DNA from: Picochlorum sp. SENEW3
Taxonomy: Eukaryota
Length of the DNA stretch: 64,000 bases
NCBI GenBank assembly: GCA_034226945.1
Contig: CP120456.1
Span: forward strand, 682,001-746,000
Direction: 5' to 3'
A model generated the notes under the pieces. It ran no database searches. It saw only the letters and a program-made list of their open reading frames with translations, and had not been told where the DNA came from. Both the position numbers and the translations under genes were made by a program. This document shows, in pieces, positions 9,197-38,862 of this stretch; within the stretch, counting starts at the first letter, position 1; each line of letters opens with the position of its first letter.

Positions 9197-10584
9197 ATGT
9201 ACTCATGTTATATCAAAAATGCAGATAAGCAATTGGGAGCGTCTTTGAATCGCAATAAACAGTTATGGCAGCGTATTTCAGAGTCCCGGGACGGTTTGGT
9301 TACAGCTGCAGTTTCCTCTGAAACTGGATCATATGGTGTCTTCACTCTCAACTATGAGGCTGACAATGTGCGTGATATGATTGAGACAGCAGTTGGTTTT
9401 CGACTTTCACTGGTTCTTACTGTGTGGCCGTTTTTGTAGGAAGATCCAAGGTTGACCAGCACGTGGAAAAAGACTATGAATGTTGTAGTCACAGGAGCTG
9501 CTGGGCAGATTGCAAACCATCTTCTGTTTATGATTGCGTCAGGAGAAGTTTTTGGTAGAGATCAGCCAATTGCTCTTCATCTGCTAGGCTCGGAACGTTC
9601 CAGAGAGGCAGTGGAGGGAGTTGCAATGGAACTGGAGGATTCTCTTTATCCCCTTTTGAGACAAGTGATCATCGGAACGGATCCTTACAAGGTGTTCAAG
9701 GATGCCGATTGGGCTATTCTAATCGGTGCCAAGCCACGAGGTCCTGGTATGGAGCGAGCAGACTTGTTGGACATTAATGGTCAAATCTTTCAGGAACAGG
9801 GCAAGGCCATCAATGAGGTTGCTAGCAGGAACTGCAAGATGATGGTCGTAGGAAACCCCTGCAACACAAATGCAATGATTGCAATGGAAAATGCGCCTGA
9901 TATTCCGAGAGAGAACTGGCATGCTTTGACAAGACTGGATGAGAACAGGGCAAAATGCCAGTTGGGACTAAAGGCTGGAAAGTTCTACACATCTGTTACA
10001 AATATGTGTGTTTGGGGAAATCATTCCACATCACAAGTACCGGACTTTGTTAATGCCAAAATCGGGGGAAAGAGAACTCCCGCAGTTATCAAAGATACAC
10101 AGTGGTTGAAAGAAGAGTTCACACCTACTGTTGCCACGAGAGGTGCAGCTTTGATCAAGAAATGGGGAAGATCCTCTGGAGCATCAACAGCTGTATCTAT
10201 TGCTGATGCACTTCGATCCCTTTATACACCAACTCCTGAAGGAGATTGCTTCTCAAGTGCTGTCTGCACTGATGGAAATCCATATGATCTGGAAGGTACG
10301 AACTCTCATTCTCTCTCTGTCTATTGCATTATCTATATCTGATTCATGTATCGCTTATCATTTTTGTAGAGGGTCTTATTTTCAGTATGCCATGTCGATC
10401 AAATGGCGATGGAACATACGAGGTGATTGACGATTTTGTGATCGATGATTGGCTCAGATCAAAGTTGGAGGCAACCCAGCAGGAATTGATTTTGGAGCGC
10501 GACTGCGTTGGCCACCTGATTCCAAATTCTTCCAGAGCAGTGTGTACTATCAAAGAAGACACAATGTTGCCAGGAGAGAATTAA
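9197..10584 (+). CDS. NADP-MDH: Chloroplast NADP-dependent malate dehydrogenase
   Basis: Motifs [55 protein letters not shown]-terminal regulatory extension C...[10 protein letters not shown]. The N-terminal SYGVFTL lacks the land-plant Cys pair. Confidence 0.95.
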
Positions 10585-10648
10585 TCTTTCTCTGATATAT
10601 TGTCTTGCTGTTTTGAAATTCCATGAGAATTTTTTATCATACATAAAG

Positions 10649-11208
10649 TCACAATGTTTCATGTTTCTTCTTCCTTCTCCTGGTTTTGTGTGCTACCAAT
10701 AAATCATCCTTACTCGTTTTCTGTTTCTTTGGAGCTGAAAACATTTGACTTCGACCCATTTCTTCTTCTTCTTCCTCAACGTCTCCCACCGGGTCTTGTG
10801 ACTGGTTCCTTTTCAGTGTGGCACCAAGTTTACGCTCATGCTGGCGTTTAGAAGAGGACAGTCTTTCGGTCAAGTGCTCATCTACTTTCCATACACTCTG
10901 CATAGATTCCAATAATGGTCTTTCGAACCTTGCCAACGTATTACATTGCATATTCACCCACACCTTTTTCTTTGTTTTTGGTACTTTGTGCCGCCTATAT
11001 CCCAGCCCACTAAATTGTCCCAAGGCAGGCTCTTCTACCGCATCTGCTTGCTCAATCACCTCCTTTTCATTCGTACCAAGCCATTGCGCAGCCTGATCAG
11101 AAGACAACATATCAGTAAAACGCTTCAGCTACAAACAAGGAGCATATCGCATACCAGTCGTAGAGCCTGTCCTGTAGCAACCACTTCGTCCTTCTTCCTG
11201 CCACTCAT
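10649..11208 (-). CDS. Small charged, probably nuclear protein of unknown function
   Basis: Spliced model MSGRKKDEVVATGQALRL|AAQWLG..GLGY..EEEEEEMGRS..RRRKKK, with an acidic patch and an NLS-like tail. Confidence 0.55.
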
Positions 11209-14146: not shown

Positions 14147-17100
14147 ATGCTCGAAACAAGTTTAACGAGCATGCTCGGACCCGTACGAGCTCCTTGTCGA
14201 CTGCAAAGTAGACAAAACTGTAAAAATATCGGACAGAAGTTAGGGTTTGTTCGATTTAATGGTCTGAAGGGAGTTCGTGTGACCAGATCCGCATGGAGTT
14301 CCGGAAAGCCCTCGACTCTTTGGGGCAGGAAGGGTCGCTCTATGGCAACAGTACGTGTTCTAATTTAATAAATTGTTATATAAATTTTACTCTCGTTTTG
14401 AGCTTTGAGACATGTATTCCAACCTCGTTCAGGTGTACGCAAAACACAGTGAGGTGCCAGAGTCACAAGGGCTTTTCAATCCCTCGAACGACAAGGATGC
14501 TTGTGGGGTTGGGTTTGTCGCGGAACTGTCGAAGGTACCAACTCGAAAGACCGTGACTGATTCCTTGGAGATGCTTGTGAGAATGCGGCATCGAGGTGCC
14601 TGTGGATGTGAACCCAACACTGGGGATGGTGCTGGTATCCTTGTGGCGATTCCACATGACTTCCTGGTGCATGAAATCGAGCAATCCAGTGCATTTGTAC
14701 TGCCTAAAAGAGGAGAGTATGGGGTCGGTATGGTCTTTCTTCCGAGGGATCCCGAGCAGTATGACAGCGCAAAGTCTGCATTGAGACGGGTTGTTGAATC
14801 CAGGGGTCACACGATGCTTGGGTGGAGAACAGTGCCAACGGATAGCACCGGCCTTGGAGAAGGTGCTCTCAGGACCCAACCAATCATTGAACAATTCTTC
14901 ATCACCGAGAGTGATAAGCCAAATGGCAAAACTATTGAGCAGCAGATGTTTGTACTCAGGAAATTGATTGAACAGGGGTGGAGGGTTGCAGGTTTGACTG
15001 ATGATGATGCATACATGTGTTCTTTGTCTTCTGAGACAGTGGTGTATAAAGGTCAACTTACTACGGAACAAGTTGAAAGTTTTTTCTTGGATCTTCAGAG
15101 CCCAATGTTTACATCCTATGTGGCATTGGTGCATTCTAGATTTTCCACAAATACATTCCCAGCTTGGCACAGGGCCCAGCCAATGAGAATGCTTGGACAC
15201 AATGGTGAAATCAACACACTCCGTGGAAATGTGAATTGGATGAAGGCAAGACAAGGAGTGATGAGGTGTAACTCTTTGTCTGTAACTGAGAGAACTTTGC
15301 AAAAGCTGCTGCCAATCATACCTAAAGAGCAATCAGATTCTGGTTCATTTGACTCCGTCTTGGAGTTGCTTGTTCGCAGTGGAAGAGACTTGCCGGAGGC
15401 TATGATGATGTGTATTCCAGAAGCATGGCAAAACGATCAGCTGATGTCCCAGGAAAAAAGAGACTTTTACAAGTTCCATTCTTGTATAATGGAGCCATGG
15501 GATGGGCCAGCACTGGTGGCTTTCACAGATGGCCATTTCATTGGAGCAACCCTTGACAGGAATGGACTCAGGCCTGGTCGATATTATGTCACAAAAGACA
15601 AGAGGGTTGTGATGGCTTCTGAGGTAGGAGTTGTCGATATTCTGCCTGAAAATATTGAGAAGAAAGGAAGGCTCATGCCAGGCAATATTTTCCTGGTAGA
15701 CTTCGATTCTCACGCTGTGATTGATGATAAAGAATTGAAGCACAAATATGCAACTTCAAGGCCTTATGGAGAGTGGGTTGAGAAGGAAACTGTTCGTTTG
15801 TATGATGTTGTCAAGAGTGTTCCTCATCCTATCAAACCTCCAGAGATTCAAGGTGCAAATGTCCAAGGGAATGGAAGTGGACCTCCAAAAGGGATACAAA
15901 AGCTTCTCTCACCTTTAAAGGCCTTCGGATATACTACTGAGACGATCGATAAAATCCTGCTGCCAATGTCCTCTACAGCTGCAGATCCCCTGGGATCAAT
16001 GGGAAATGATTCTCCCTTGGCAGTGATGAGTGATAGACCCAAACTGCTGTATGAATATTTCAAGCAATTGTTTGCTCAGGTCACAAATCCTGCCATAGAC
16101 CCTCTGAGAGAAAAATTTGTTACTTCTATGAGAAGTATGATCGGTCCAGAAGGGGATATTACAGAAACTCAGGAGGATCAAGCTCATCGTTTGGATTTAC
16201 CGCATCCATTCCTGAAGCCAGAGGAAATGGAGGCTATCAAGAAGATGCAATTCCGAGGCTGGGCATCAAAGACAATTGATATCACTTGGCCGATCAGTGA
16301 GGGACCGAAAGGTATCACTGCTGCCCTGGATAGAGTGTGTGCTGAAGCAGCTTTGGCTATTGAGGATGGATTTGATTTCATTGTTCTCTCTGACAGGGAA
16401 GCCAACCATTCAAGAGCATCCATGAGCGCATTGATGGCAGTTGGAAGAGTTCATCATCATCTTGTACAGCTGCAAAAGCGATCCAGAGTCGGGTTGTTGG
16501 TTGAAACAGGAGATGCAAGAGAAGTCCACCATTTCTGCTTGTTACTTGGCTTTGGTGTGGATGCCATTTGTCCATATCTTGCAATGGAAACAGTTGTTGG
16601 ACTGCAGCAGGATGGCTTGATTCAGCAGTCATCATCAAGGGATGAGATAATTGATAGATACATCAAAGCAGCCAGGGATGGTGTTGTCAAGGTGATGGCC
16701 AAGATGGGAATTTCAACAGTTGCATCCTACCGAGGTTCCCAAATATTCGAAGCTGTGGGTCTCGGGGATGAAGTCATCAATAGTTGCTTCAAAGGAACTT
16801 CATCGAGGATTGGTGGGTTAGGATTTATGGAATTGGCAAATGATCTTCTCGATCTCCACAAGGTAGCTTATGGTAGTCACTATGAGAGCAATGTCTTGCC
16901 CAATCCTGGATCTTATCATTTCAGGTCGACATCTGAGAACGAAGCACACCTGAATTCTCCCTTGGCAATCGCAAAACTTCAGGAAGCTTCTCGAGAAGGC
17001 AGTATTGCCGCTTACAAGGAGTATTCGAGATTGACCCAAGAATTGAATCGCAAGGTTAACATTCGAGGCATGCTGAAGTTCAAACCATCGCCCACGGGGT

Positions 17101-20100
17101 CAATTCCAATAAGTGAGGTCGAGCCTGCATCGGAAATTTGCAAAAGATTTGTGACGGGAGCAATGTCTTACGGGTCCATTTCTCTCGAAGCTCACACAAC
17201 CCTGGCGATCGCAATGAATTCCATTGGAGGAAAATCAAACACTGGAGAGGGAGGAGAAAATCCTCGACGGCTTGTGCCTAATGAGGATGGATCAAGGAAT
17301 CCTATGAGATCCTCGATAAAACAAGTGGCATCTGGGCGTTTCGGTGTTACAGCAAATTATTTGACCAATTCTGACGAGATCCAAATCAAGATATCTCAAG
17401 GTGCAAAGCCCGGAGAAGGTGGTGAACTTCCTGGTACAAAGGTCAAAGGTGATATAGGTACGCAGAATCTTTGTTGTTTGAACGCTGATGCTCATTCACA
17501 CCCGTCCTAAATTTTGATTTGATATTTCTCTGCAGCAAAAACACGAAAGTCGACAGCTGGAGTGGGACTCATTTCTCCCCCACCTCATCATGATATTTAC
17601 TCCATCGAAGATCTGGCGCAACTCATCTATGATTTGAAGAGCTCCAACCCCGATGCTCGTATATCAGTCAAACTTGTGAGTGAGAATGGTGTAGGTGTCG
17701 TCGCATCTGGTGTTGTGAAAGGCCATGCAGACCATGTCTTGATCTCTGGCCATGATGGAGGAACTGGGGCAGCCAAATGGACATCAATCAAGAATGCTGG
17801 TCTCCCTTGGGAGCTTGGGCTTGCAGAAACACATCAGACTCTCGTAGCGAATGATCTCAGGAGCCGTACTGTTTTGCAGGCAGACGGTCAGATGAAGACA
17901 GGAAGAGATATTGCAGTAGCTGCTTTGCTAGGTGCTGAGGAGTTTGGATTTGCGACTGCTCCTTTGATAACCATGGGATGTATCATGATGAGAAAGTGCC
18001 ACACAAACACTTGCCCAGTTGGTGTAGCTACCCAAGATCCTGTGCTGCGCGCCAAATTTGCAGGAGAGCCGGAACATGTCATCAACTTCTTGTTCATGGT
18101 TGCAGAAGAAATGAGAGAATATATGGCAGAGATGGGATTCAGAACTGTGACAGAAATGGTCGGTAGGGCTGATATGCTTGAGGTCGATGAGGAAGTCATT
18201 CAGGAGAATTCAAAGTTGTCAGGTGTCGATCTCTCAAAGATGTTGATTCCTGCCGCAACTATTCGTCCAGAGGCAAAGCAAACATGTCACATAAAGCAGG
18301 ACCATGGATTGGATACTGGATTGGACCCAGAACTGATTCCTTTATGCAAAGCTGCGCTTCCAGATGATGGAAGCCCAGCAGAGAGTGTTAAAGTCGAGAC
18401 CAAAGTATCTAATGTGAACCGAGCTGTTGGTACTACTTTGTCACACGAGGTGACGAAGAGATTTGGGGAAGAAGGCCTTCCAGCTGATACGATCCACATC
18501 AAGCTGGAGGGACATGCTGGACAATCCCTGGGTGCCTGGCTGTGCCATGGAATCACTATTGAGCTCGAAGGGGATGCAAATGATTATGTCGGAAAAGGCC
18601 TGTCAGGTGGTCTCGTTGCAGTGTATCCTTCGAAGAAGTCATCATTCTCCCCTGAGGAGAACATAATTGCTGGAAATGTCTGTTTGTATGGTGCTACAGC
18701 AGGTGAAGCTTACCTCAGTGGGGTAGCAGCAGAGAGATTCTGTGTACGTAATTCTGGAGCTCAAGCTGTTGTTGAAGGCGTGGGTGACCATGGATGTGAG
18801 TACATGACAGGGGGAACCGCAGTCATTTTGGGCAAGATAGGGAAAAACTTTGGAGCTGGAATGAGTGGAGGGCTTGCGTTTGTCTATGACCCATCTGACA
18901 CCATGCATTCACTATGCAATGTAGACATCGCACAAGATCTCTATCCAATTGTTGAACAAGAAGATATAGACACATTGCACGGTTTGATCAGCAACCATCT
19001 GAAATTCACAGGATCACCGATTGCCCAGAGAATCCTGGAAAATTGGAAAGAGACTCTTCCTGCTTTCAAGAAAGTGTACCCAAGAGATTACAAAAATGCC
19101 TTGGAGGAACAAAAGAGGATTGAGAGTGCACAAGAAGAAGAGAAACAGCTCATGTCCGAAATGGTGCCAGGAGAAGATGCATTTGACACTCTCAGGAAAA
19201 TGGCCAAAAGCATTGTGGACGATGGTGCCAAACTCAGCACGTCTCCAAGAAGAATTGTCTCACCGCCCACACCAAAGTTGTCAGCTGATCTGAAGGAGGA
19301 GTATGACCGTCTTCTCAAAGATGCAACAAGTGGCCTTCCTGTAGCAGGGAGGGAGCCAGTTTGGGATTCAGAGAGACCCAGAATTGTACAGAACGGTGAG
19401 ACACAAAAGCAGGGAGGATTCATGAGGTATGAGCGTGAGCCTTTACCCTATCGTCCAGTGGATGAGAGGTTGAAGGATTATAACGAAGTACTTGCCCCAT
19501 CTGCAAACGGAACAAATTCAGATCTCTTGAAAACACAGAGTGCCAGGTGTATGGACTGTGGTACCCCGTATTGCCTCAATAAGGAAACTGGATGTCCACT
19601 CGGAAACCTGATTCCGGAGTGGAATACATTGGTCTGGCAAGGAAGGTGGAAAGAGGCAGCAGACAGGTTGCTTGCTACAAATAACTTCCCTGAATTTACA
19701 GGCAGGGTCTGCCCGGCTCCTTGTGAAGGCTCTTGTGTCCTCGGCATTAATCAGAATCCAGTCACCATTAAAACCATGGAAGTCTCGATCATTGATAAAG
19801 CATTTGAGGAAGGCTGGATAGTTCCACGCCCCCCAAAGACAAGAACTGGAAGACGAGTAGCTATCATTGGCAGTGGTCCTTCAGGAATGGCAGCGGCTGA
19901 CCAGTTGAACAAGATGGGTCATGCTGTGACAGTGTTTGAAAGAGCTGACCGTATTGGGGGATTGATGATGTATGGTGTACCAAATATGAAGACTGGCAAG
20001 AAGGAGATTGTTCAGAGAAGGGTTGACTTGATGGCCGATGAGGGCGTCAAATTTGTTACAAATGCATCTGTGGGCAAAAATGTGGATGTGAAACTTCTGA

Positions 20101-20981
20101 AAGCAGAATCTGACGCTGTCATTCTTGCTGCTGGTGCTACCAAGCCAAGAGACTTGCCCATCGAAGGAAGGGAGTACAATGGCATTCACTTTGCGATGGA
20201 ATTTCTGACTGCAAACACGAAAAGCCTGCTTGATTCGAACCATGCAGATGGCAAGTACATTTCAGCCAAAGGCAAACGTGTTGTAGTAATTGGTGGTGGC
20301 GACACAGGAACAGATTGCATTGGCACATCTGTGAGACACGGGGCAACAGAAGTAATCAATCTTGAGCTCCTAAGCAAACCTTCAGACACGAGATCTGAGA
20401 GCAACCCTTGGCCATACTTCCCACGAGTATTCAAGGTTGACTATGGCCATGCAGAGGCATCCCATGCCTTTGGTAAGGATCCAAGGGAATATGATGTTCT
20501 CACAAAACGATTCATTGGAGACGAAAATGGAAATCTGAAGGGCATTGAGATCGTTGATGTTGTCTGGACGCCACCTCAGAATGGAGGAAGGCCTACATTT
20601 GAAGAGGTGGAGGGAAGCAGTAGGATCATTGAAGCAGATCTGATACTGCTTGCTATGGGATTCTTGGGACCAGAAGAAACCCTCGCAGAGGCTCTGGGCA
20701 TTGAATGTGATGAGAGATCAAACTTCAAAGCCCAGTATGGTAACTTTGCCACGTCAATAGATGGAGTATTCGCTGCAGGAGATTGCCGCAGGGGCCAGTC
20801 CCTCGTCGTTTGGGCTATCGCGGAGGGTCGCGAGGCAGCTGATTCTTGCCACAAGTATCTGATGACTAAGGATGCATCCTTCCCTGATGATACAGATGAA
20901 TTTACAGGAGGGGTGATTGATCTCGACACATTTGAGAGCACAGGAGGACTATTGGGAGCCTCTGGTGCAGTAGCAGCATAA
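14147..20981 (+). CDS. GLT1: NADH-dependent glutamate synthase (NADH-GOGAT), plastid-targeted
   Basis: Transit exon 14147-14350, mature start [46 protein letters not shown]. Fused beta domain [26 protein letters not shown] and GSGPSG. Confidence 0.97.
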
Positions 20982-21000
20982 ATTGTAAGTACATGTACAT

Positions 21001-22405
21001 TTAAGACATTTTCAAATTCAATTCCTTTGCATTGACAATAGATGGGGCTGCCTTTGGAATAGATTCAAATGGTCCGTCAACAAAGCCCAACACATCTGGC
21101 TTGTTCCACACTGGATAATCCTGCAAAATTGCAGCAACATTGCTTGCTGCAAGTGTTGCCATGCCAGACCTTGTCCATTGCGTCGCAGACGCAATATGAG
21201 GGACAATGACAGCATTCTCACACTCTTTGAGCCCTGGTTTCATCAATGGCTCGTCTTCGAAAACATCCAAACCGACTCTGAACTCTGGATTTTTCTTCAA
21301 GTGAGCAACCAAGGCAACCTCATCAATGACAGGTCCACGTGCTGCATTTACAAGCACTGCATTGGACTTCATCATATTCAATTTCTCTTCATTGATCAAA
21401 TGTTTGGTGTTTTCATCCAGGTTACAGTGCAGACTGACGACATCCGACACCTTCAAGACCTCCTCCACAGTCCCACACCGAGTCACTGTGATCTCATCCC
21501 CACCTTTGCTCTGAACCAACTTGGAGTAATCTTTGACATACTCCTCCAAAAATTTGTTCTCAAACGGATCATAATACACAAGATTCATCTTATGCCCTTC
21601 CACCATCATTCTGGCATACGCAGTACCAATCCTTCCTGCACCAATGATGCCCACAGTTTTACCCTGTAAAAGGTTTCCGACAAAAAGAGTTGGAAGCCAT
21701 CCCTTGTACTTTTCCGCCCGCATAAAGCTATCTCCCTCTACAACTCTTCTCGCAGCAGCAAATGTCAACGCTGCTGCAAGCTCAGCAGTCGTCTCCGTCA
21801 ACACCCCTGGAGTATTACCAACTGGAATACCGCGAGCAGTTGCCTCTGGAACAACAACATTGTTATACCCTACTGCATAATTACTGAAAGCTCTTCCACC
21901 CGCTTTCTTCAATGCTTCAAACAATTCACTTCCCCAGTCTTCCGTAAGCTGCCCAATCACCCCATCACAAGAGTTCCCGATAAATTTCACAATAGTGGCA
22001 TTATCCAGAATTGTCTCTGGAGACTGAGAGATTTCAACTCTGCACCCAGCAGAGGCCAAAATCTGCTTCCATCGATCCCCAGGAAGATTTTTTGTCACAA
22101 TCACTCTTTTGGCTCCTTCTGGATTCACAACCTGCGATCAAACGGCACAATGTCAGAACAGAATCCCAGAAAGCCCCAGTAGTAGACTCCTACAACGATC
22201 CCGCCAACACCCCACCAAACCCGCATCGATTCCCACAATGCTACCCATAAATATATAGATCAGCATTTCATATAAAAAATCATACCTCCACTGGGATCCC
22301 ATTGACCGTTTCTGTAGCCATTGATCGCACCGACTGGACACTCAACCCAAGGTTTTGTCTCGTAGATGCTGCTGTACGATACAATGCACGTGCGATTCTG
22401 TTCAT
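21001..22405 (-). CDS. HPR1: Hydroxypyruvate reductase (plant HPR1-type) with mitochondrial-type presequence
   Basis: Motifs NPEG.KRV.VTK.LPG.RW, DGVIGQLTEDWG, FSNYAVGYNNV, GNTPGVLTETTAEL, GAGRIG, VPHIASA..WTR.GMATLAA. Exon 1 MNRIARALYR..VRSMA; C-terminus LKMS (no SKL). 154-nt intron at 22132-22285. Confidence 0.95.
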
Positions 22406-22601
22406 GATGAATACAACACGAATAATGTTTTTTAAAAACAGTGTCGACATCCCCATCGCTGATGTGGACATTTAAGCAGCGGCCCCTTCCGAGCGAATTC
22501 TTATTCTATTTATACAAGGAACTTTTTTGCGCTTGGTGGTTGGACCGTGTGTTTTACTTTGGCAACACGTCGGATATGTATTCTGTTTGAATATTGTTGT
22601 G

Positions 22602-23633
22602 ATGGAGAGTGTTTTTGAATCGTTTGGACTGAGTTTTGTAATCTCAAATCCACGCGAGCAGGACAATCCAATTGTGTATGCCTCAGAGAACTTTTACAAG
22701 ACAACAGGATACTCTCCAAAAGAAGTCATTAACCGAAATTGTCGGTTTTTACAAGGTAAAGATACATCCCGACAGAGTGTGTGCGAGATTCGGGATGCCA
22801 TTCGGGAGGAGCGAGCTACGTCGACGTGTCTTTTGAATTATAGAAAGAATGGTACCCCATTCTGGAATGCTTTTCATCTAGAACCTGTGAAAGATGTCCA
22901 TGGGATGACGGAATTTTACATCGGGGTCCAAGTCGACGTAACGGAGATGTTCAAGAGTGCTTTGGGAGAGGCTGCAGTGTCTGAATGTTCAAAGGATGTG
23001 TGTAGTAAGGCACAGCAGTTGGCGGATGAGGTGAAAAAGTATGCCGACAAGCTTCATGAGAATGCGCGTGTTAGTGTAGCTGTTGCTGACTCTATACCGA
23101 GTCCTCTTCTGTCAGGTTTGTCAACAATCAATCATGCATTTTGTTTGACGGATCCCAGCATCCCGGGTAATCCAATGGTATATTGTTCACCTGGGTTTTT
23201 ACGTATGACGCGGTATTCGAGTTCGGAGTTGATTGGAAAGCCGTGCTCGATGCTGCAAGGGGAATTGACAGATCAGAAAGAGGTGGAGAAAATCCGGGCT
23301 GCTATTCATCATGAGCCGCCTCGGCCAGTATCGGCTTGTTTGGCAAATTATAGAAAGGATGGAGAGGTATTTATGAATTCTGTTCATATTGCACCGGTGA
23401 ATTGCTCATCAGGAAAGGTGAAGTATTTCTGTGGAGTTCAAAGTGAAGTTCCAATGAATGTAGATGAGGGTTGTAAGACGCGCAATCCATTGGTATTATT
23501 AAAGCAAAAGGGTGTTATAGGAGCTGTGCGAGTGGCGGCTCGAGGACTTGCCGATTCGGGGCTTGTGAGAAAGCCAGATCATCAAGTGCCATGCAATAGT
23601 GTTCTGAATCCTGATAAATTAATGGAGAAATGA
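22602..23633 (+). CDS. Twin-LOV (LOV/LOV, PAS/LOV; TLP1/LLP-like) blue-light sensor without an effector domain
   Basis: LOV1 DNPIVYASENF..NRNCRFLQG..NYRKNGTPFWN; LOV2 GNPMVYCS..GKPCSMLQG..NYRKDG. C-terminal GVIGAVRVAARGL resembles the plant TLP1 tail. Confidence 0.88.
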   Translation: MESVFESFGLSFVISNPREQDNPIVYASENFYKTTGYSPKEVINRNCRFLQGKDTSRQSVCEIRDAIREERATSTCLLNYRKNGTPFWNAFHLEPVKDVHGMTEFYIGVQVDVTEMFKSALGEAAVSECSKDVCSKAQQLADEVKKYADKLHENARVSVAVADSIPSPLLSGLSTINHAFCLTDPSIPGNPMVYCSPGFLRMTRYSSSELIGKPCSMLQGELTDQKEVEKIRAAIHHEPPRPVSACLANYRKDGEVFMNSVHIAPVNCSSGKVKYFCGVQSEVPMNVDEGCKTRNPLVLLKQKGVIGAVRVAARGLADSGLVRKPDHQVPCNSVLNPDKLMEK

Positions 23634-23715
23634 TGTGTTCGTGTAAAATAGACGTAGATGATTAAACGAATAAAAATGAAAATTTAGCATAGAAAAAAAA
23701 AAGGATTCCTTGTCT

Positions 23716-26700
23716 CTATGAGGAAGAGGAGGTTTCTTTTGGTTTTGGCTTTGTTGCTTCATCAACGAGGTACACAAGTCCTCTGAAGTGCATTCCTGAA
23801 TGGTTACTCAGAGACATTTCGCACGTTCTCGACGTAGAATATCCATCAGAACATCCTGCGACGTTGAGATGCTGGAGGGAGGACGAGGTCAATTCTGGGT
23901 ACCTCATTCCCCTGTCACCAGCCATACCACAGCATGGAATGTTGGATGGAACCACCTCATCAGCACACATGGATGCTACCTTCATGAACGACTCCTCAAT
24001 GCCCATTTTCTTTGAAGAACATGGAACATGGATGGCTACAGTATCCCTGACCTTTGAGAAGTCCAACTTATCGAGCATGAAGTGCCTGATAAACTCCACT
24101 GGTTCATACAGAGAGAAACGCAGTGCTGGGTCAGACAAACCGGATTTGATCTGAGCCAAGCATGGCGATGTGTCGCACACGATTGGGTACTTTCCATTAT
24201 CTGATGCTTTCAGCAAAGCTGCCTCGAGTTCAGATCCCTTCTTTGCTGCTGCATCCTTGAAACCTCTGCTGTTAAACATCATACCACAGCAGGATGATGA
24301 CAATCCCTCGGGATACACCACCTCATACCCTCCTTTTTGGAAGATTGACAACAGCTTCTCATGCACACTTGCATTTTCGGTATCGTTCTTAGCTGGTCCC
24401 ATGATTCGTGTCACACAGGCAGGAACATATACCACCTTTCTTGGGATGCCCTTCTCAGCTTCAACCGAGACTTCTGGAGCGGGTGGATTCATGTTCAATG
24501 GAGATGCAGCCTTTGGCATGTATGGGTTCCATTCTGGTACCATGTGTCCTGAAATCTTATTCAATGCTCTGGAAATAGTTTGAAGAGGCCATGGTCCGAG
24601 AATTTGATGGGCCACATTGACAGCCCCAAGGAGTTTGTTAAATGTCCAAGCTGTTGCTCCAAAGTTATTTGCAACCATATCAGCCACCTTGCTTGCCTTT
24701 GGCATTTCATCCATTGCTTCGCTTCTGATATGTTTCACTAATTCACCTGTGTTGATCTTCACAGGGCATTTCTCTTGGCACATACCATCAGCGGCACATG
24801 TATCAATTCCATCGTACTCGAAAGTCTTTGACATTTCCGCAAGCCTTTTTTCTTGCTCTGGCGTCCTGGATGGGATTGACTTCAATCGATAAATTTCCTT
24901 GAATACAGCAATGCGCTGTCTTGGCGTCAAAGTGAGATCCCTTGATGGACAGTTGCTCTCACAAAATCCGCATTCAATACAACGGTTCACGAGCTTGCTT
25001 GCTGTTGGGGATGGCTTCAAATTCTTCACATGCACCATAGCATCCTCATTCAAAATTACGCCAGGATTCAGCACATAATCAGGGTCAAAGATTTCCTTCA
25101 GCTCCCACATCAATTCAGTTGCCTTGGCACCCCACTCCATCTCAACATATGGGGCCATGTTTCTACCAGTTCCGTGCTCTCCTTTCAGAGATCCTCTATG
25201 CTTCACTGCAACAATGTGGCACATTTCATCCATCATGTCCTGGAAACGCTTCACTTCTTCTGGTGTACGGAACCCTTGAGAGAAGACAAGGTGCAAGTTT
25301 CCTTCGAGTGCATGACCAAAGCAGGATGCATCATGGTATCCATGCTTTTCAAACATTTCAATGAGATCCATAGTCATGTCACCGAGCCTATCAGTTGGGC
25401 ATGCAACATCCTCCAGAAGCATCGTCGTTCCATCCTCTCTCGCTCCTCCAACAATAGGAATGAGACCCTTTCTCACATCCCAGTACACCTTGGCATCCTT
25501 TTGGTCGTGCTTAAACTCATATGCATCTAAAGATGTCTCCTTGCCAGGAGCAGGTCCAAATGGAAGTTGAGATCCTTCCAGCGCTACTCGAATCTCTTCA
25601 ATACGAGCCTTCAAATCTTCTTCAGTTTGACCTCTGCATTCAATCAATAGAGCTGCAGCCATTGAGCCACACCCATCAATATCTGGTACCAGGCGAGTCA
25701 TGTCTTCATTCCCAGCACACTCCCTCAATGAAGCCCTGTCGAACATTTCTACAGCATCTACGGATGTTTGAGATCTAAGGACAGCAGCTGCTTGGCAGGC
25801 GGCCTTCACGTGAGGGAACATGACGAATGCAGATGCCTTATTTGGCCACTCTGGCACTGTATTGTAGGTCACCTGTGACACAAATCCCAATGTTCCTTCG
25901 CTTCCAATGATCACTCTCTTGATAATCTCAATCGGATCATCTACTGGAAAATCAACCAAAGCGTTCAAAGAATACCCAGTCGTGCACTTGATGGCAAACT
26001 TTCTGCGAATAAGAGAAGCCAATTGCTTATCCGACTGCACTCTCTTGGCCAAGTCCACCACATTGCTCACCAAATCAGCATGAGACTTCAAAAATGCCTG
26101 CTTACTTTCCTCGCTCGATGTATCCAACACAGTACCATCAACAAAAACCACCCGAAGATCCTTCAACGTGTGATATGTATTCTGTGATACACCGCAGCAC
26201 ATTCCAGAGGAGTTGTTAGACACAATTCCTCCAATCATGCATGAATCGATAGATGATGGATCTGGACCAATTTTATACTGTACTGGAAGCTTGTTCTTCA
26301 TCTTGTGCTGTGCCAAAATCCTATTCACCTCACCCCCAATCAACCCGGGCTCGACGGTAATGCTGCTTCCATCCCCATGAACTGTGAAATTCCTAAAATT
26401 CTTACCAGTGTGTGAAATCTTCACCAAAACAGAATCCGTCAAAGCCTGGCCAGACAAAGATGTACCGGCAGCCCTGAATGTAATAGGAACCCCATGCTTC
26501 TTCGCAATCGGCAACAGCTTGATCGCCTCCTCCTCCGAATGCATCTTGACCACCAACTTTGGATTCAAACGATAAAAACTCGCATCTGTCCCATACGCAA
26601 AAGTCCTCACCGGATCCGTGAATTGCCTTGTCTTGGGCACAAACTCTGAAATCTCCTCGATAAATGCGGCATACCTCCCATCTTCAATTCGACGCCCATC

Positions 26701-27054
26701 CATGTTTTCAAATGCCGTCACCTTGCGATCAAGCTCGTGAGGCTCCACAATGGAAATAGCCCCAACCTCATCAATATGAGTCAATGGTAACGCAGAAGGC
26801 TCAACCTTGGTCTCTACCATCTGTTGCGCAGCTGGTTGCGATGCTGCTGGTCGGGTTTGCTGAAAGCGTCCATGTCCACCACGGAATTCCTCAAAGTTCT
26901 CCAACCCCTTCTTTCCCTTGCCCTTACTCACCAGACCTCGAGAACTGGTATTCAACAACCCATATGCATTGTTATCAGCAGAAACACTACCACCAGCGCC
27001 CCTCTTGGTGACAACAAGATTGTCCAACACGCGTGACACAAGGCGTCGTCTCAT
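23716..27054 (-). CDS. GYD1: Glycolate dehydrogenase / FAD-Fe-S D-lactate dehydrogenase (GlcD plus GlcF-like fusion, algal GYD1 type), intronless
   Basis: Motifs YGTDASFYRLNP, FRAAGTSLSGQA, GPDPSS, GSEGTLG, GHALEGNLH, KGEHGTGRN. Ferredoxin motifs CIECGFCESNCP and CAADGMCQEKCP, two CCG domains. Arg-rich N-terminus. Confidence 0.9.
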   Translation of the reverse strand: MRRRLVSRVLDNLVVTKRGAGGSVSADNNAYGLLNTSSRGLVSKGKGKKGLENFEEFRGGHGRFQQTRPAASQPAAQQMVETKVEPSALPLTHIDEVGAISIVEPHELDRKVTAFENMDGRRIEDGRYAAFIEEISEFVPKTRQFTDPVRTFAYGTDASFYRLNPKLVVKMHSEEEAIKLLPIAKKHGVPITFRAAGTSLSGQALTDSVLVKISHTGKNFRNFTVHGDGSSITVEPGLIGGEVNRILAQHKMKNKLPVQYKIGPDPSSIDSCMIGGIVSNNSSGMCCGVSQNTYHTLKDLRVVFVDGTVLDTSSEESKQAFLKSHADLVSNVVDLAKRVQSDKQLASLIRRKFAIKCTTGYSLNALVDFPVDDPIEIIKRVIIGSEGTLGFVSQVTYNTVPEWPNKASAFVMFPHVKAACQAAAVLRSQTSVDAVEMFDRASLRECAGNEDMTRLVPDIDGCGSMAAALLIECRGQTEEDLKARIEEIRVALEGSQLPFGPAPGKETSLDAYEFKHDQKDAKVYWDVRKGLIPIVGGAREDGTTMLLEDVACPTDRLGDMTMDLIEMFEKHGYHDASCFGHALEGNLHLVFSQGFRTPEEVKRFQDMMDEMCHIVAVKHRGSLKGEHGTGRNMAPYVEMEWGAKATELMWELKEIFDPDYVLNPGVILNEDAMVHVKNLKPSPTASKLVNRCIECGFCESNCPSRDLTLTPRQRIAVFKEIYRLKSIPSRTPEQEKRLAEMSKTFEYDGIDTCAADGMCQEKCPVKINTGELVKHIRSEAMDEMPKASKVADMVANNFGATAWTFNKLLGAVNVAHQILGPWPLQTISRALNKISGHMVPEWNPYMPKAASPLNMNPPAPEVSVEAEKGIPRKVVYVPACVTRIMGPAKNDTENASVHEKLLSIFQKGGYEVVYPEGLSSSCCGMMFNSRGFKDAAAKKGSELEAALLKASDNGKYPIVCDTSPCLAQIKSGLSDPALRFSLYEPVEFIRHFMLDKLDFSKVRDTVAIHVPCSSKKMGIEESFMKVASMCADEVVPSNIPCCGMAGDRGMRYPELTSSSLQHLNVAGCSDGYSTSRTCEMSLSNHSGMHFRGLVYLVDEATKPKPKETSSSS

Positions 27055-27455
27055 GGTATTACGACACTATGAAATCAATCAAATCAGTCTTAATGGAATA
27101 TAAATGAAATACCATCAATGGCATGGCCAGGGTCTGGGAGTCTCATAGTCAAAATCTCCCATCTGGATATCACCAATATATTGCTGTGGGTGGCGCCTTG
27201 TTCGTAGTAGACTAGTCTTCGTAGTAGAGTACCCTGTCCTTTGGTTCATCTCCAGGGCAAGTACTACAAGCATCATTGATATCAACGGATGGTAGATACA
27301 ATTACCTCTGATTTTGATATCTGAGAATTTAATAGAGTATTACTACGAGAAGAAGGGTCTCCTACCACGAACACATTGTATTCTGTCATACAGGCAAGGG
27401 TCTTTGTTGAAGCCGGATACAGTAACAAACACTACGACGAGTAATATCCGTGACG
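27055..27455. promoter_or_regulatory. Bidirectional promoter between GYD1 and SGAT
   Basis: About 400 bp between divergent ATGs. Tandem TTCGTAGTAGA (27201, 27218), GAGTACCCT (27227), ACCTCTGAT (27304) and several inverted CTACGA/CTACTA-like copies. Confidence 0.55.
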
Positions 27456-28888
27456 ATGATGTTGAGACAGTCTCGTAAAGTATCAAAGATTGTTCAGAGG
27501 GCAATGAGCTCTATGCCGGCCTTTGCGGAGGAGGTGTGTCGCTGTTGGTGACATGTGACATGTATTGGTGGTTTCTAAACCTCGTGAGTTTTGGGGTGTG
27601 GTGCTGATCAAATATTTGTTTTTGTATATAGGTTGCTTCTGAGGCAAAGAAAACCTCCACGAGGGCACCATTTTCGTATGAACCTCCTGGGAGGAACCAC
27701 TTGTTCGTTCCAGGTCCGGTGAATATTCACGACAATGTCTTGAGGGCTATGCATGTGGGTGGCCAGAATCACCGCGATGCTTGGTTCCCAGAGTTTTACA
27801 AGACGTGTTTGGAGGAGAGTAAGATGATCTTTGGCACGACTAAGGGTACTCCAATCTTCTGGCCTGGTACTGGAACTGGTGGGTGGGAAGCTGCTCTGAC
27901 GAATACGCTTTCTCCAGGAGACAAAGTCGTGACCTTCAGATATGGACTCTTCTCTCATCTCTGGATTGATATGATGCAGCGCCTCGGACTTGATGTGGAG
28001 GTGATTGACTGCAGATGGGGAGATGGAGCTGATGAGGAGCGTCTTGCAGAAGTATTGAAGGCTGACACTGAGAAGAAGATCAAGGCTGTGTGTGTCGTTC
28101 ATAATGAGACCACTACTGGTGTGACATCAGATATTGGTCATGTGAGGACGACGATGGATGAATTTTCTCATCCAGCAATGCTTTTGGTTGACGGTGTCTC
28201 TTCCATTGGAGCATTGGACTTTAAGTTTGATGAGTGGGGTGTTGATGTGGCCGTCACTGGTTCTCAAAAGGCACTCTCTCTTCCAACTGGTTTGGCTGTG
28301 GTGTGTGCTTCCGAGAAGGCCATTGCTGCGGGCAAGACTGCGACATCCAAGAGAGTGTATTTTGACTTTGCTGATATGCTTAGAACAAATCCATCTGGCA
28401 ATGTGCCATACACACCAGAGCTTCAGATGTTGTATGGCCTCAGGGAATCTTTGAAAATGTTGAGAGAGGAAGGTATGGAGAATGTCGTTGCACGTCATCA
28501 CCGCTTGGCAGAGGGAACCCGTCGCGCTGTGGCTGGATGGGGTCTGGAGACACTCTGCAAAAACCCACGCTGGTACTCTGACTCTCTGACTGTGATCGAA
28601 ACTCCTGAGGGGATTGATTCACAGAAGATTGTAGATATTGCGTACGCAAAGTACAACATGTCTTTGGGCATTGGATTGGACAGAGTCAAGGGCAAGGTGT
28701 TCAGAATCGGACACCTTGGAAACATGGATGAAATAATGCTGAGTGGAGCCCTTAGCGGCGTCGAATTGGCCATGAAAGATGCAGGTGTGCCAATTACTCT
28801 TGGAAGCGGTGTCTCCAAGGCCATGGAGTACTGGAGCGAGACAATGGAGGTCATCCCAACACGGGAGCACTTGGTGCAAGAAGCCTAA
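27456..28888 (+). CDS. SGAT: Serine:glyoxylate aminotransferase (plant AGT1/SGAT type) with mitochondrial-type presequence
   Basis: Exon 1 MMLRQSRKVSKIVQRAMSS, intron 27534-27631, then PGRNHLFVPGPVNI, GTGGWEAALTNTLSPGD, VHNETTTGV, DGVSSIGA, TGSQKALSLP, FRIGHLG. No C-terminal PTS1. Confidence 0.95.
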
Positions 28889-28931
28889 TATGAAATGATT
28901 TTCTCCTCGATTTTGTACAAAAATTATACAT

Positions 28932-29734
28932 TTAATACGATGAACCTCGATTATTTTCCCATATATCATCAATCACTCCAAAGTCTAGTGGCTGGAGGTC
29001 AGGGGCGCTGTGGTCATCTGTCACCATGTATGCATCTTCATCCTCTGATTCCTCATCCTCTTCATCCTCCTCGAAATCTATGTACGGTTCTTCATCATTA
29101 AAATCCCGTCGTAATTGTACAGCCTGACCAAGAACGTGTCCAAGAATCTGGGATGTATCATCCACCATGTCCAAGGACATTGAATGGATTATAGGAGGAA
29201 TACCAACATCATACAGCACTTGAACAATCTCCAACTGATTCAGTTGCCTACATATCATACAATAGTAGTCCATCCTAAATTGTACGCTTGTACCGGACAG
29301 GTGAATAAAAAACATAGCAACACGTACGGAATATTTTGAAACAACAAAACCCTTTCCTGTCCCCACCCACCTCCGTCTATCCAATCAGGAGGTATTGGAC
29401 TCGACCAATCTGGCTCAGAGCCTTCCTGAAAGACCTGTTGAACAGGTGTATATAGCAAATCAGAGGAACACACAATCATTTCAATGGCATTGCCACCTGC
29501 CTCATCGAGTGCCATTCGAATAATTGGCATCTCGGCTACCAAAAACCCAGCCAAAACTATACCCATTTTACCATCATTTTCATAATGATCGTATGTGCTG
29601 GATCGTATGCGGGATTTAGAGCTGTATAAATTCTTCGGTGGAGGGAAAGCGAATGCAATCCTCCCATGCGGACGTGTATGCTGCCTCCGAGATGCTACAT
29701 ACCGATGATGGCACGTGAAAGAGGTAGAAGACAT
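28932..29734 (-). CDS. Putative plastid protein, possibly DUF3783-like
   Basis: Ser/Arg-rich transit-like N-terminus, GIVLAGF..ALDEAGG..C core, acidic C-terminus, one intron. Confidence 0.45.
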
Positions 29735-37863: not shown

Positions 37864-38862
37864 TTAATTCTTCACCTTGTCAGCAGGAATGAGGCCAACG
37901 TTTTTCAAAATGCCAACAGCAGACTTGTCTAAATTCAAAGTATACATGTGCAAGCCTGGCACTCCAGCAGCAAGGAGCCTCTGGCACATTTGTGTCCCAA
38001 GAGACACACCAAACGCTTTGACAGCCTCATCATTGTCTTTGATGGTTTCAAGCACATTTGTGATATGCTCTGGCACATACGTCTTGCAGAAGCTTGTCAT
38101 GCGCTTAAATCCACCATAGTTCATTATAGGCATGATGCCTGGAAGAATTGGAACATTGATGCCAGCAGACTTGCAATCAGTCACAAACTTGAGAAACAAA
38201 TCAACATCATAAAAGAGCTGTGTGATCACAAAGTCAGCACCGGCTTCAACCTTCTTCTTTAGATAATCAATGTCTTCCCAATACTTCTTCTTCATCTCCT
38301 CTGGATCGTCTACAATCTGATCTGGATGTGCTTCTGGGTACCCACTCACACATATTCCAAAGTAATCTCCATGCTTTTCGCGAATATACTTGACCAAATC
38401 CAGAGCACATGCAAATCCTCCTTCTACTTGTGTAAACTTGTCCTCTCCATGAGGTGGATCGCCCCGCAAAGCGAGGATGTTTCTGATCCCTGCTTCTTTG
38501 CACTGCTGTAGGGCCGCCTCGAGCTTTTCAACAGGCATATTCGTGCATGTCAGATGCATCATAGTCTCCGCTTGAACCTATACAGCGTCAGAAATTCATT
38601 TAATCTCACTCACGTGGGATTATGCAGTCAATAGACGACCTACCTCGTTCTGCATCTTCTCGGCAATTGTCAGAGTCAGGTCTGCTGTCGACCCTCCAGC
38701 ACCCCATGTAATGTCACAGAACAATGGATCCAGGGATTTCATATATATCTGACGCTGATGAAGGTTTTTGACCCCTTCATCGGTCTTTGGAGGAAAGTAT
38801 TCAAACGAGTAAAATGTCTCTCCATTATCAATTTTCGAGTTGATCTTCTCTATGATCTTCAT
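37864..38862 (-). CDS. MTHFR: Methylenetetrahydrofolate reductase, eukaryote-type catalytic domain only (about 310 aa)
   Basis: Motifs [72 protein letters not shown]. Stop directly after the barrel; intron 38578-38643. Confidence 0.93.

Follow-up and report, generated by a model that had tools for sequence, protein, structure and literature searches.

The closest described relatives of the gene reported here are the LLP/PLP/TWIN LOV 1 proteins of plants. For about 20 years no function could be assigned to them; control of ascorbate was then described in tomato. In tomato and Arabidopsis, PLP binds and inhibits GDP-L-galactose phosphorylase (GGP) in the dark, and blue light deactivates this inhibition (excerpts of PMC10291033). 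The genomic setting has also been described. The photorespiration gene cluster of Picochlorum was published by Foflonker et al. (2016), as cited in PMC7826186 and PMC12198440, and according to excerpts of these two articles the cluster is partly co-expressed under salinity stress. In the excerpted supplement of PMC7826186, the 'photorespiration' neighbourhood comprises HPR and a mitochondrial carrier, and neither LLP nor glycolate dehydrogenase (GYD) appears in it. No report tying Picochlorum to a LOV receptor was found in the literature searched, which covered the 2016 description of the cluster through the articles citing it. The same literature yielded no report tying a LOV protein to glycolate dehydrogenase, and no measured flavin binding, photocycle or partner for any chlorophyte LLP; PMC12366059 contained no synteny data. 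In the searches made, LLP/PLP in green algae was without known biology.

The window (the whole 64,000-nucleotide stretch of Picochlorum DNA that was analysed) carries a twin-LOV gene, LLP, between the HPR and GYD genes of this cluster. The features are as follows, in positions of the window.

1623-2666, upstream of the cluster: second class-V aminotransferase
9452-10339, upstream of the cluster: malate dehydrogenase (MDH)
14412..20981, + strand: NADH-type glutamate synthase (GOGAT), two long ORFs (Pfam)
21001..22405, - strand: HPR, 416 aa; exon 2 at 21001-22129, intron at 22130-22283, exon 1 at 22284-22405
22406..22601, no strand: 196 bp separating the divergent start codons of HPR and LLP, presumably a shared promoter
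22602..23633, + strand: LLP (twin-LOV) coding sequence, 343 codons and TGA, intronless (Pfam, RNA contig, dN/dS)
22632..22937, + strand: LOV1 core, residues 11-112, canonical GxNCRFLQ, Cys47 (TGT) at 22740-22742 (Pfam, structure match, AlphaFold2, alignment)
22941..23063, + strand: helical linker, residues 114-154 (AlphaFold2 helices 114-118, 122-146 and 148-154)
23136..23450, + strand: LOV2 core, residues 179-283, variant KPCSMLQ, Cys215 (TGC) at 23244-23246 (structure match, AlphaFold2, alignment)
23487..23549, + strand: C-terminal helix, residues 296-316, with the family motif LKQKGVIGAVRVAARGL (AlphaFold2 and alignment of 25 LLPs)
23716..27054, - strand: GYD, 1112 aa, convergent with LLP; FAD-oxidase and 4Fe-4S domains (Pfam)
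27456..28888, + strand: serine:glyoxylate-type class-V aminotransferase (SGAT), 98-nt intron at 27532-27629 (Pfam, RNA)

The window resembles a compact green-algal nuclear genome, with a G+C content of about 42-51% in 2-kb windows.

The LLP coding sequence begins with an ATG at 22602 and ends with a TGA at 23631-23633. Four public runs (X1, X2, X7 and X8) were compared with positions 20900-29000. None of the runs listed was recorded as RNA; X2, X7 and X8, which came from three studies, were inferred to be RNA from spliced joints, namely an HPR joint from 22129 to 22284 and an aminotransferase joint from 27531 to 27630, both present in all three. Contigs of these three RNA runs also covered LLP, with a depth unsuited to ranking genes. 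The X2 contig was collinear with the genome over 22610-24252, and therefore the LLP coding region is free of introns within it. At the 5' end, the contigs of X1, X2 and X8 started at 22609/22610, 7-8 nt past the first base of the ATG, and that of X7 over LLP at 22629. On the other side, the HPR contigs ended at 22395 (X2) and 22401 (X7), short of the HPR start codon, and 22526-22608 was uncovered by the RNA contigs of the four runs. An intron acceptor at 22608/22609 was considered and rejected, as the X2 contig has adapter directly at 22610 and no joint was reported there.

A metagenome scan provided two related loci, designated L001 and L002. Similarity between L001 and the window sets in about 16 nt upstream of the ATG, with one synonymous change as the only difference in codons 1-9; the ATG at 22602 was therefore kept as the start. 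The 5' UTR is taken to be either very short or uncaptured, and the N-terminus is not fully secured. Beyond these approximately 16 nt, no alignment of the 196-bp intergenic region was obtained with either L001 or L002. The homologue on L001 is cut short at the LOV2 motif, and the final 160 bases of this locus look unrelated. Over the first 213 codons, the L001 homologue differs from LLP at nine residues (dS 0.56, dN/dS 0.033), which means that LLP is under strong purifying selection. The LLP ORF is a genuine, expressed gene.

LLP matched PAS_9 twice (Pfam, E 6.3e-36), and no other domain was found in it, kinase included. When compared separately with solved LOV domains, the LOV1 stretch gave E 2.9e-34 (oat phototropin LOV2 with its helices), and the LOV2 stretch gave E 1.1e-27 with the reactive Cys aligned. 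In the match to 4wf0, the linker sequence aligned with the helix behind the oat LOV2 domain. The AlphaFold2 model (mean pLDDT 85.2, pTM 0.71) places LOV1 at residues 11-112, helices at 114-154, LOV2 at 179-283 and the motif-bearing helix at 296-316; part of this model was superposed by Foldseek on oat LOV2 with flanking helices (2v1a; TM 0.90, rmsd 1.7, 142 columns).

The closest named match was a 268-aa model of Picochlorum sp. BPE23, with 99% identity over 39% of the query, and a 344-aa protein matched LLP at 99% across its full length; the next relatives were 53-64% identical. Further matches came from Chlorella sorokiniana, C. vulgaris, Nannochloris, Auxenochlorella and Bryopsis, and included many 'putative LOV domain-containing proteins' of ferns and liverworts, Marchantia MpLLP, a PAS/LOV protein of Klebsormidium and the angiosperm TWIN LOV 1 proteins. 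The best full-length matches were proteins of LLP length, those of chlorophytes scoring 260-778 bits; with 343 aa and no effector domain, the window protein fits the range of about 340-470 aa taken for stand-alone members of the family. Among longer proteins, the best were phototropins (234 bits or less, 37-41% identity), and the search among them revealed no fused form closer than the relatives of LLP length.

Two maximum-likelihood trees of 40 and 49 rows were built by quick search, with branches supported by SH-aLRT only and no bootstrap. Phototropins and LLPs were split at SH-aLRT 100 in both trees. The window protein fell in a Picochlorum-like clade (99) nested among trebouxiophyte LLPs, and the streptophyte LLPs formed a separate clade in both trees (95-96). 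In addition, a motif after LOV2 with the consensus LRQKGVVGAVRVAxRxL was shared by the 25 aligned LLPs, from chlorophytes to angiosperms, and G307 and R314 were invariant in this alignment. On our own reading of the alignment, this motif can be taken as a mark of the LLP family. The gene is thus assigned, from sequence and phylogeny, as the Picochlorum orthologue of the plant LLP/PLP/TWIN LOV 1 family.

The initial annotation had described a kinase-less LOV/LOV gene of the TLP1/LLP type, with a canonical NCRFLQ in LOV1 and a Cys-retaining PCSMLQ variant in LOV2, lying between HPR and GYD. The Pfam result, the positions of Cys47 and Cys215, the domains of both neighbours (2-Hacid_dh; FAD-oxidase and 4Fe-4S) and, for the family, the database matches, the 25-LLP motif and the trees all bear this out. 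Its distance of about 200 bp to the HPR ATG proved to be 196 bp, and that of 82 bp to the GYD stop was exact. The span of 22406..23633 was right at its end; 22406 is the first intergenic base, and the gene starts at 22602.

The LOV1 motif of LLP is the canonical RNCRFLQ (Cys47), and the LOV2 motif is KPCSMLQ (Cys215). A residue survey was performed on an alignment of 121 sequences, consisting of the query and 120 listed matches. We tracked eight LOV positions that are flavin contacts in LOV crystal structures; the Arg beside the Cys is the phosphate-binding residue. At the LOV2 Cys position, Cys was present in 114 sequences, Tyr in five and Pro in one, with one gap. The residue after it was Arg in 104 of the 121 sequences and Ser in ten, and the window protein has Ser216. 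The residue before it was Asn in 106 of the 121, and the window protein has Pro214. The ten rows with Ser for Arg (P0001, P0002 and P0004-P0011) all belonged to the Picochlorum-like clade, and seven of them also had Pro for Asn. In a sister subclade (P0015, P0019, P0020, P0022 and P0023), the LOV2 Cys was replaced by Tyr, the residue corresponding to Gln219 by Leu and that corresponding to Asn249 by Cys. Since the Ser state is confined to ten Picochlorum-like sequences and the sister subclade has no LOV2 Cys, CSMLQ is conserved and specific to its clade, within a lineage whose LOV2 drifts from the canonical flavin site. In the window protein, the flavin site of LOV2 may be weakened or altered.

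At the LOV1 Cys position, Cys was found in 90 of the 121 sequences and Gly in 15, and every angiosperm TWIN LOV 1 in the 25-LLP alignment had Gly there. Angiosperm-type LOV2 motifs (NCRFLS or NCRFLN) were present in 13 of the 121 sequences.

Given a LOV2 without Asn and Arg next to its Cys, a model with two sensors may be wrong. It is conceivable, as a tentative alternative, that LOV2 here is no longer photoactive and acts as a structural or partner-binding PAS domain, making the protein in effect a single-LOV sensor. The substitutions at Pro214 and Ser216, the restriction of the Arg-to-Ser change to Picochlorum-like proteins and the further loss in the sister subclade all point this way. The family also tolerates one dead LOV domain, as seen in the Gly at the LOV1 Cys position; in Arabidopsis and tomato PLP, LOV1 is non-functional and has Gly for Cys (excerpts of PMC10291033). 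A single-LOV protein of this kind would be the mirror image of angiosperm PLP, whose LOV1 is the inactive domain. Against a loss of photoactivity, LOV2 of the window retains Cys215, Gln219, Arg232, Asn249, Asn259 and Gln280, the CSMLQ form is conserved across proteins merely 53-64% identical to that of the window, and the domain still matches solved LOV domains at E 1e-27.

HPR contains 2-Hacid_dh domains (Pfam), its 154-nt intron is backed by the spliced RNA contigs, and the joined frame is open. Its start codon, on the minus strand, appears as CAT at 22403-22405 and is separated from the LLP ATG by 196 bp; the GYD stop at 23716-23718 lies 82 bp from the LLP stop. The SGAT start codon is one of 27456, 27459, 27504 and 27513. 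The GOGAT and HPR stops are 19 bp apart, so the 196-bp and 82-bp spacings around LLP are ordinary for this compact genome.

The linkage of LLP with GYD was read from locus tags, accession numbers and contigs of the LLP and GYD matches. In Picochlorum BPE23, LLP is M9435_002014 and GYD is M9435_002013. The pair is likewise adjacent in Nannochloris desiccata (LLP g04605 and GYD g04606; also KSW81_000664 and KSW81_000663). Chlorella vulgaris carries LLP D9Q98_005777 and GYD D9Q98_005775 on one 2,596,179-bp contig, and in a second assembly of this species the two accessions are two apart on a 735,423-bp contig. In the Auxenochlorella hybrid, LLP (B21015) and GYD (B21005) share one contig with accessions two apart, and haplotype A is the same. 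At most one gene thus separates LLP from GYD in Picochlorum, Nannochloris, C. vulgaris and Auxenochlorella, which by raw count are four of the six named taxa with usable tags or contigs. This tally omits Tetradesmus (tags from different assemblies) and C. sorokiniana (GYD not among the named matches). Five further LLP/GYD pairs were taken as lying on the same contig from equal largest contigs (13,245, 14,895, 22,991, 36,833 and 247,993 bp), and four of the five LLPs group closely with that of Nannochloris, so that they are not independent cases.

LLP and GYD were unlinked in Apatococcus lobatus (contigs of 2,446,392 and 5,806,630 bp) and Scenedesmus PABB004 (224,650 and 315,182 bp). In the tree, all linked rows fell in one 34-row clade (SH-aLRT 98), across which LLP identity to the window protein falls to about 38-45%, and both unlinked rows were in its sister group; the LLP-GYD neighbourhood is therefore at least as old as the common ancestor of these Chlorellales. 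The photorespiration cluster itself was already published, and its linkage of LLP with GYD across Chlorellales is new here. A scan of viral contigs gave ten LOV loci, judged apart from their neighbourhoods, and none was an LLP orthologue next to photorespiration genes.

L002 encodes an LLP 63% identical to that of the window and has the same order of GOGAT, HPR, LLP, GYD and aminotransferase. The enzymes are 80-90% identical between the two, and four ORFs beyond the cluster are also collinear (53-63% identity). Because the collinearity extends beyond the cluster, this comparison reflects only the general synteny of close relatives and is not specific to LLP.

The N-termini of LLP and its neighbours differ in character. 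LLP has no N-terminal extension; its first residues (MESVFESF) are acidic and already form the A' helix of LOV1. Asp and Glu are absent from the first 23-28 residues of HPR and SGAT, GYD starts with MRRRLVSR, and all three enzymes have Arg/Lys-rich, presequence-like extensions (read from the sequence, not by a targeting predictor). As the former is acidic and unextended and the latter are basic and extended, LLP and its enzyme neighbours may reside in different compartments, and direct action of LLP on these enzymes is less likely. A complex prediction with LLP 1-325 and GYD 105-770 returned 'no answer' with a score of 0.00 in both of two runs, an outcome that is neutral on binding.

These observations bear on a second alternative, according to which the twin-LOV protein functions within the cluster as a blue-light-gated regulator of glycolate oxidation or C2-cycle expression, for example through binding of a transcription factor or an enzyme precursor, with its linkage to GYD retained by selection. 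It finds support in the adjacency or one-gene distance in the four genera named, in the placement of LLP beside GYD in the DNA of both the window and L002, in the five further same-contig pairs, in the single clade of linked rows despite the low LLP identity across it, and in the 196-bp divergent region common to LLP and HPR. It is opposed by the unlinked genes in A. lobatus and Scenedesmus, by the contrast between the acidic N-terminus of LLP and the basic extensions of HPR, SGAT and GYD, by the reach of the window-L002 synteny into unrelated genes, and by the plant partner, which is an enzyme of the ascorbate pathway (excerpts of PMC10291033); moreover, the linkage stands without a baseline for the chance retention of gene pairs. 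We consider such a regulator unlikely. Its more specific form, in which the twin-LOV protein has been coupled to GYD since before the split of Chlorella, Auxenochlorella, Nannochloris and Picochlorum and gates glycolate oxidation or C2-cluster expression by blue light, appears slightly less probable still.

The initial annotation had proposed a cluster-associated blue-light or redox regulator of the C2 pathway. The position inside the cluster is confirmed; no result here shows the regulatory role, which did not gain from the ordinary spacings, the non-specific synteny with L002 and the differing N-termini, and nothing in this analysis supported the redox variant. The synteny that it suggested for other chlorophytes was found within Chlorellales, in the four taxa given above, and not in Apatococcus or Scenedesmus; this positive outcome sustains the regulatory proposal at a low probability. 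Its remark that the plant proteins have no known role in photorespiration was fair, and a role of plant PLP, the inhibition of GGP in the dark, is now known (excerpts of PMC10291033).

The lead of phototropins among the longer matches and the name 'Phototropin-2' given to the LLP orthologue in one C. vulgaris assembly might suggest that the ORF is what is left of a phototropin, truncated or degenerating, rather than a distinct receptor. This was rejected as highly improbable, given a placement in the LLP clade at SH-aLRT 100 from the phototropins, the LLP C-terminal motif, the end of the frame at 23633, only 82 bp before a convergent gene, and the dN/dS of 0.033.

The explanation that we favour, with moderate confidence, is that the gene is an LLP/PLP orthologue encoding a soluble blue-light partner switch, and that its linkage with GYD reflects retained gene order or shared expression. 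LLP would be a soluble switch without enzymatic output. By homology, LOV1 would bind FMN, and blue light would form an adduct between the flavin and Cys47. Through this adduct, the helical linker and the conserved C-terminal helix that follows LOV2 could be packed differently, and this would change the partner protein held by LLP. By analogy with PLP of tomato and Arabidopsis, LLP might bind its partner in the dark and let it go under blue light. Movement would most likely occur in the helices that follow each LOV domain, with the conserved C-terminal helix as the foremost candidate for the surface where a partner is held or released. Flavin binding, photocycle, partner switch and cellular location are what we infer for this protein from its relatives and its sequence.

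The place of LLP beside GYD is an old feature of Chlorellales that most likely reflects retained order or shared light-dependent expression and not direct control of the enzyme. Shared light-dependent expression with HPR from the 196-bp region, or retained gene order, would also explain the linkage. The presence of LLP beside GYD in every Chlorellales lineage examined is more than neutral retention predicts, and this counts against the explanation that we favour.

Two modest points are new here, namely the clade-specific LOV2 variant on a lineage with a decaying LOV2 and the conserved GYD neighbourhood. The latter yields a concrete hypothesis that can be tested in Picochlorum, a genus with biotechnological uses. 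If it were true, blue-light gating of photorespiration would be a photoreceptor output not known in plants, whose orthologue controls ascorbate synthesis; if the linkage is merely retained gene order, LLP is an ordinary orthologue. The decay of LOV2 here, set against that of LOV1 in angiosperms, may serve as a natural experiment on which LOV domain signals.

Compared with known systems, Picochlorum LLP is closest to the plant LLP/PLP/TWIN LOV 1 proteins (Arabidopsis, tomato and Marchantia MpLLP), with which it shares tandem LOV-type domains without an effector, a similar length, the C-terminal helix motif and the tree clade. It differs from them in having a canonical LOV1 with its Cys and a divergent LOV2, whereas the angiosperm proteins have Gly for Cys in LOV1 and NCRFLS or NCRFLN in LOV2. 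With 343 aa, it has almost no N-terminal extension, in contrast to the plant LLPs of about 390-460 aa, and, unlike plant LLP, it adjoins glycolate dehydrogenase. Phototropins share the tandem LOV domains and the helix after each of them, with 37-41% identity over the LOV region; however, they possess a C-terminal AGC Ser/Thr kinase domain that is absent from LLP, and their clade and the sequence after LOV2 are different. The locus lies in the same region as the photorespiration cluster of Foflonker et al. (2016), as far as that cluster is described in the excerpts of the articles citing it, with HPR, GYD and the aminotransferase around LLP and with GOGAT and MDH nearby.

The deposited Picochlorum sp. 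BPE23 model of LLP, the twin-LOV gene, is a protein of 268 aa (P0003) that shares 99% identity with the 343-aa ORF over just 39% of the length of that ORF. The single-exon LLP ORF, which RNA contigs support, suggests that the BPE23 model was wrongly built. At the 5' end, RNA contigs from three runs began at 22609/22610, shortly after the predicted ATG of LLP (22602), and those of the divergent HPR stopped slightly before its ATG (22403-22405), at 22395-22401. Within positions 22395-22629 of the window, no contig of the four runs covered 22526-22608. The contig ends at the two gene starts reflect either near-zero 5' UTRs, contigs that are too short, or the use of other start codons. At the 3' ends, the genes of the convergent pair GOGAT/HPR end 19 bp apart (window 20981-21001), and 82 bp lie between those of LLP/GYD. 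LLP and GYD may overlap at their 3' ends, since a single contig from X2, a public run inferred as RNA from spliced joints, continued from the LOV gene into GYD (window 23633-24252).

Further genes with possible links to photorespiration were located on both sides of the LOV gene:

1623-2666, second class-V aminotransferase, less than 21 kb upstream of HPR
9452-10339, malate dehydrogenase (MDH), less than 21 kb upstream of HPR
37867-38562, methylenetetrahydrofolate reductase ORF, about 9 kb past the aminotransferase that follows GYD

Methylenetetrahydrofolate reductase belongs to one-carbon metabolism, which is tied to the glycine/serine steps of photorespiration. In Chlorella variabilis, the gene given beside HPR in an entry of the supplement to PMC7826186 is an alanine-glyoxylate transaminase, and the same supplement places its Picochlorum SENEW3 orthologue two genes from an MDH. 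With the second aminotransferase and the MDH upstream of HPR, the photorespiration cluster may be larger than the five-gene group at the LOV gene.

Matching sequences were also found on a metagenome contig and an IMG/VR contig. A metagenome contig of 2247 bp (L001) matched the LLP gene as far as codon 214 (GKP), followed by unrelated sequence (2089-2247) with an ORF on the opposite strand. The match breaks off precisely at the Cys motif of LOV2, and L001 appears to be either a chimeric assembly or a copy that was disrupted. On a 255-kb IMG/VR contig (L003), the stretch 10001-10858 encodes a sequence corresponding to twin-LOV residues 1-292 (29% identity), which, judged from this match, may represent a two-LOV protein on a large virus-like contig.

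A subclade sister to the Picochlorum-like LLPs was formed by P0015, P0019, P0020, P0022, and P0023. In all five, the LOV2 Cys was replaced by Tyr, and Gln219 and Asn249 were also lost, with LOV1 still canonical. This is the opposite of the situation in angiosperms, in which the dead domain is LOV1.
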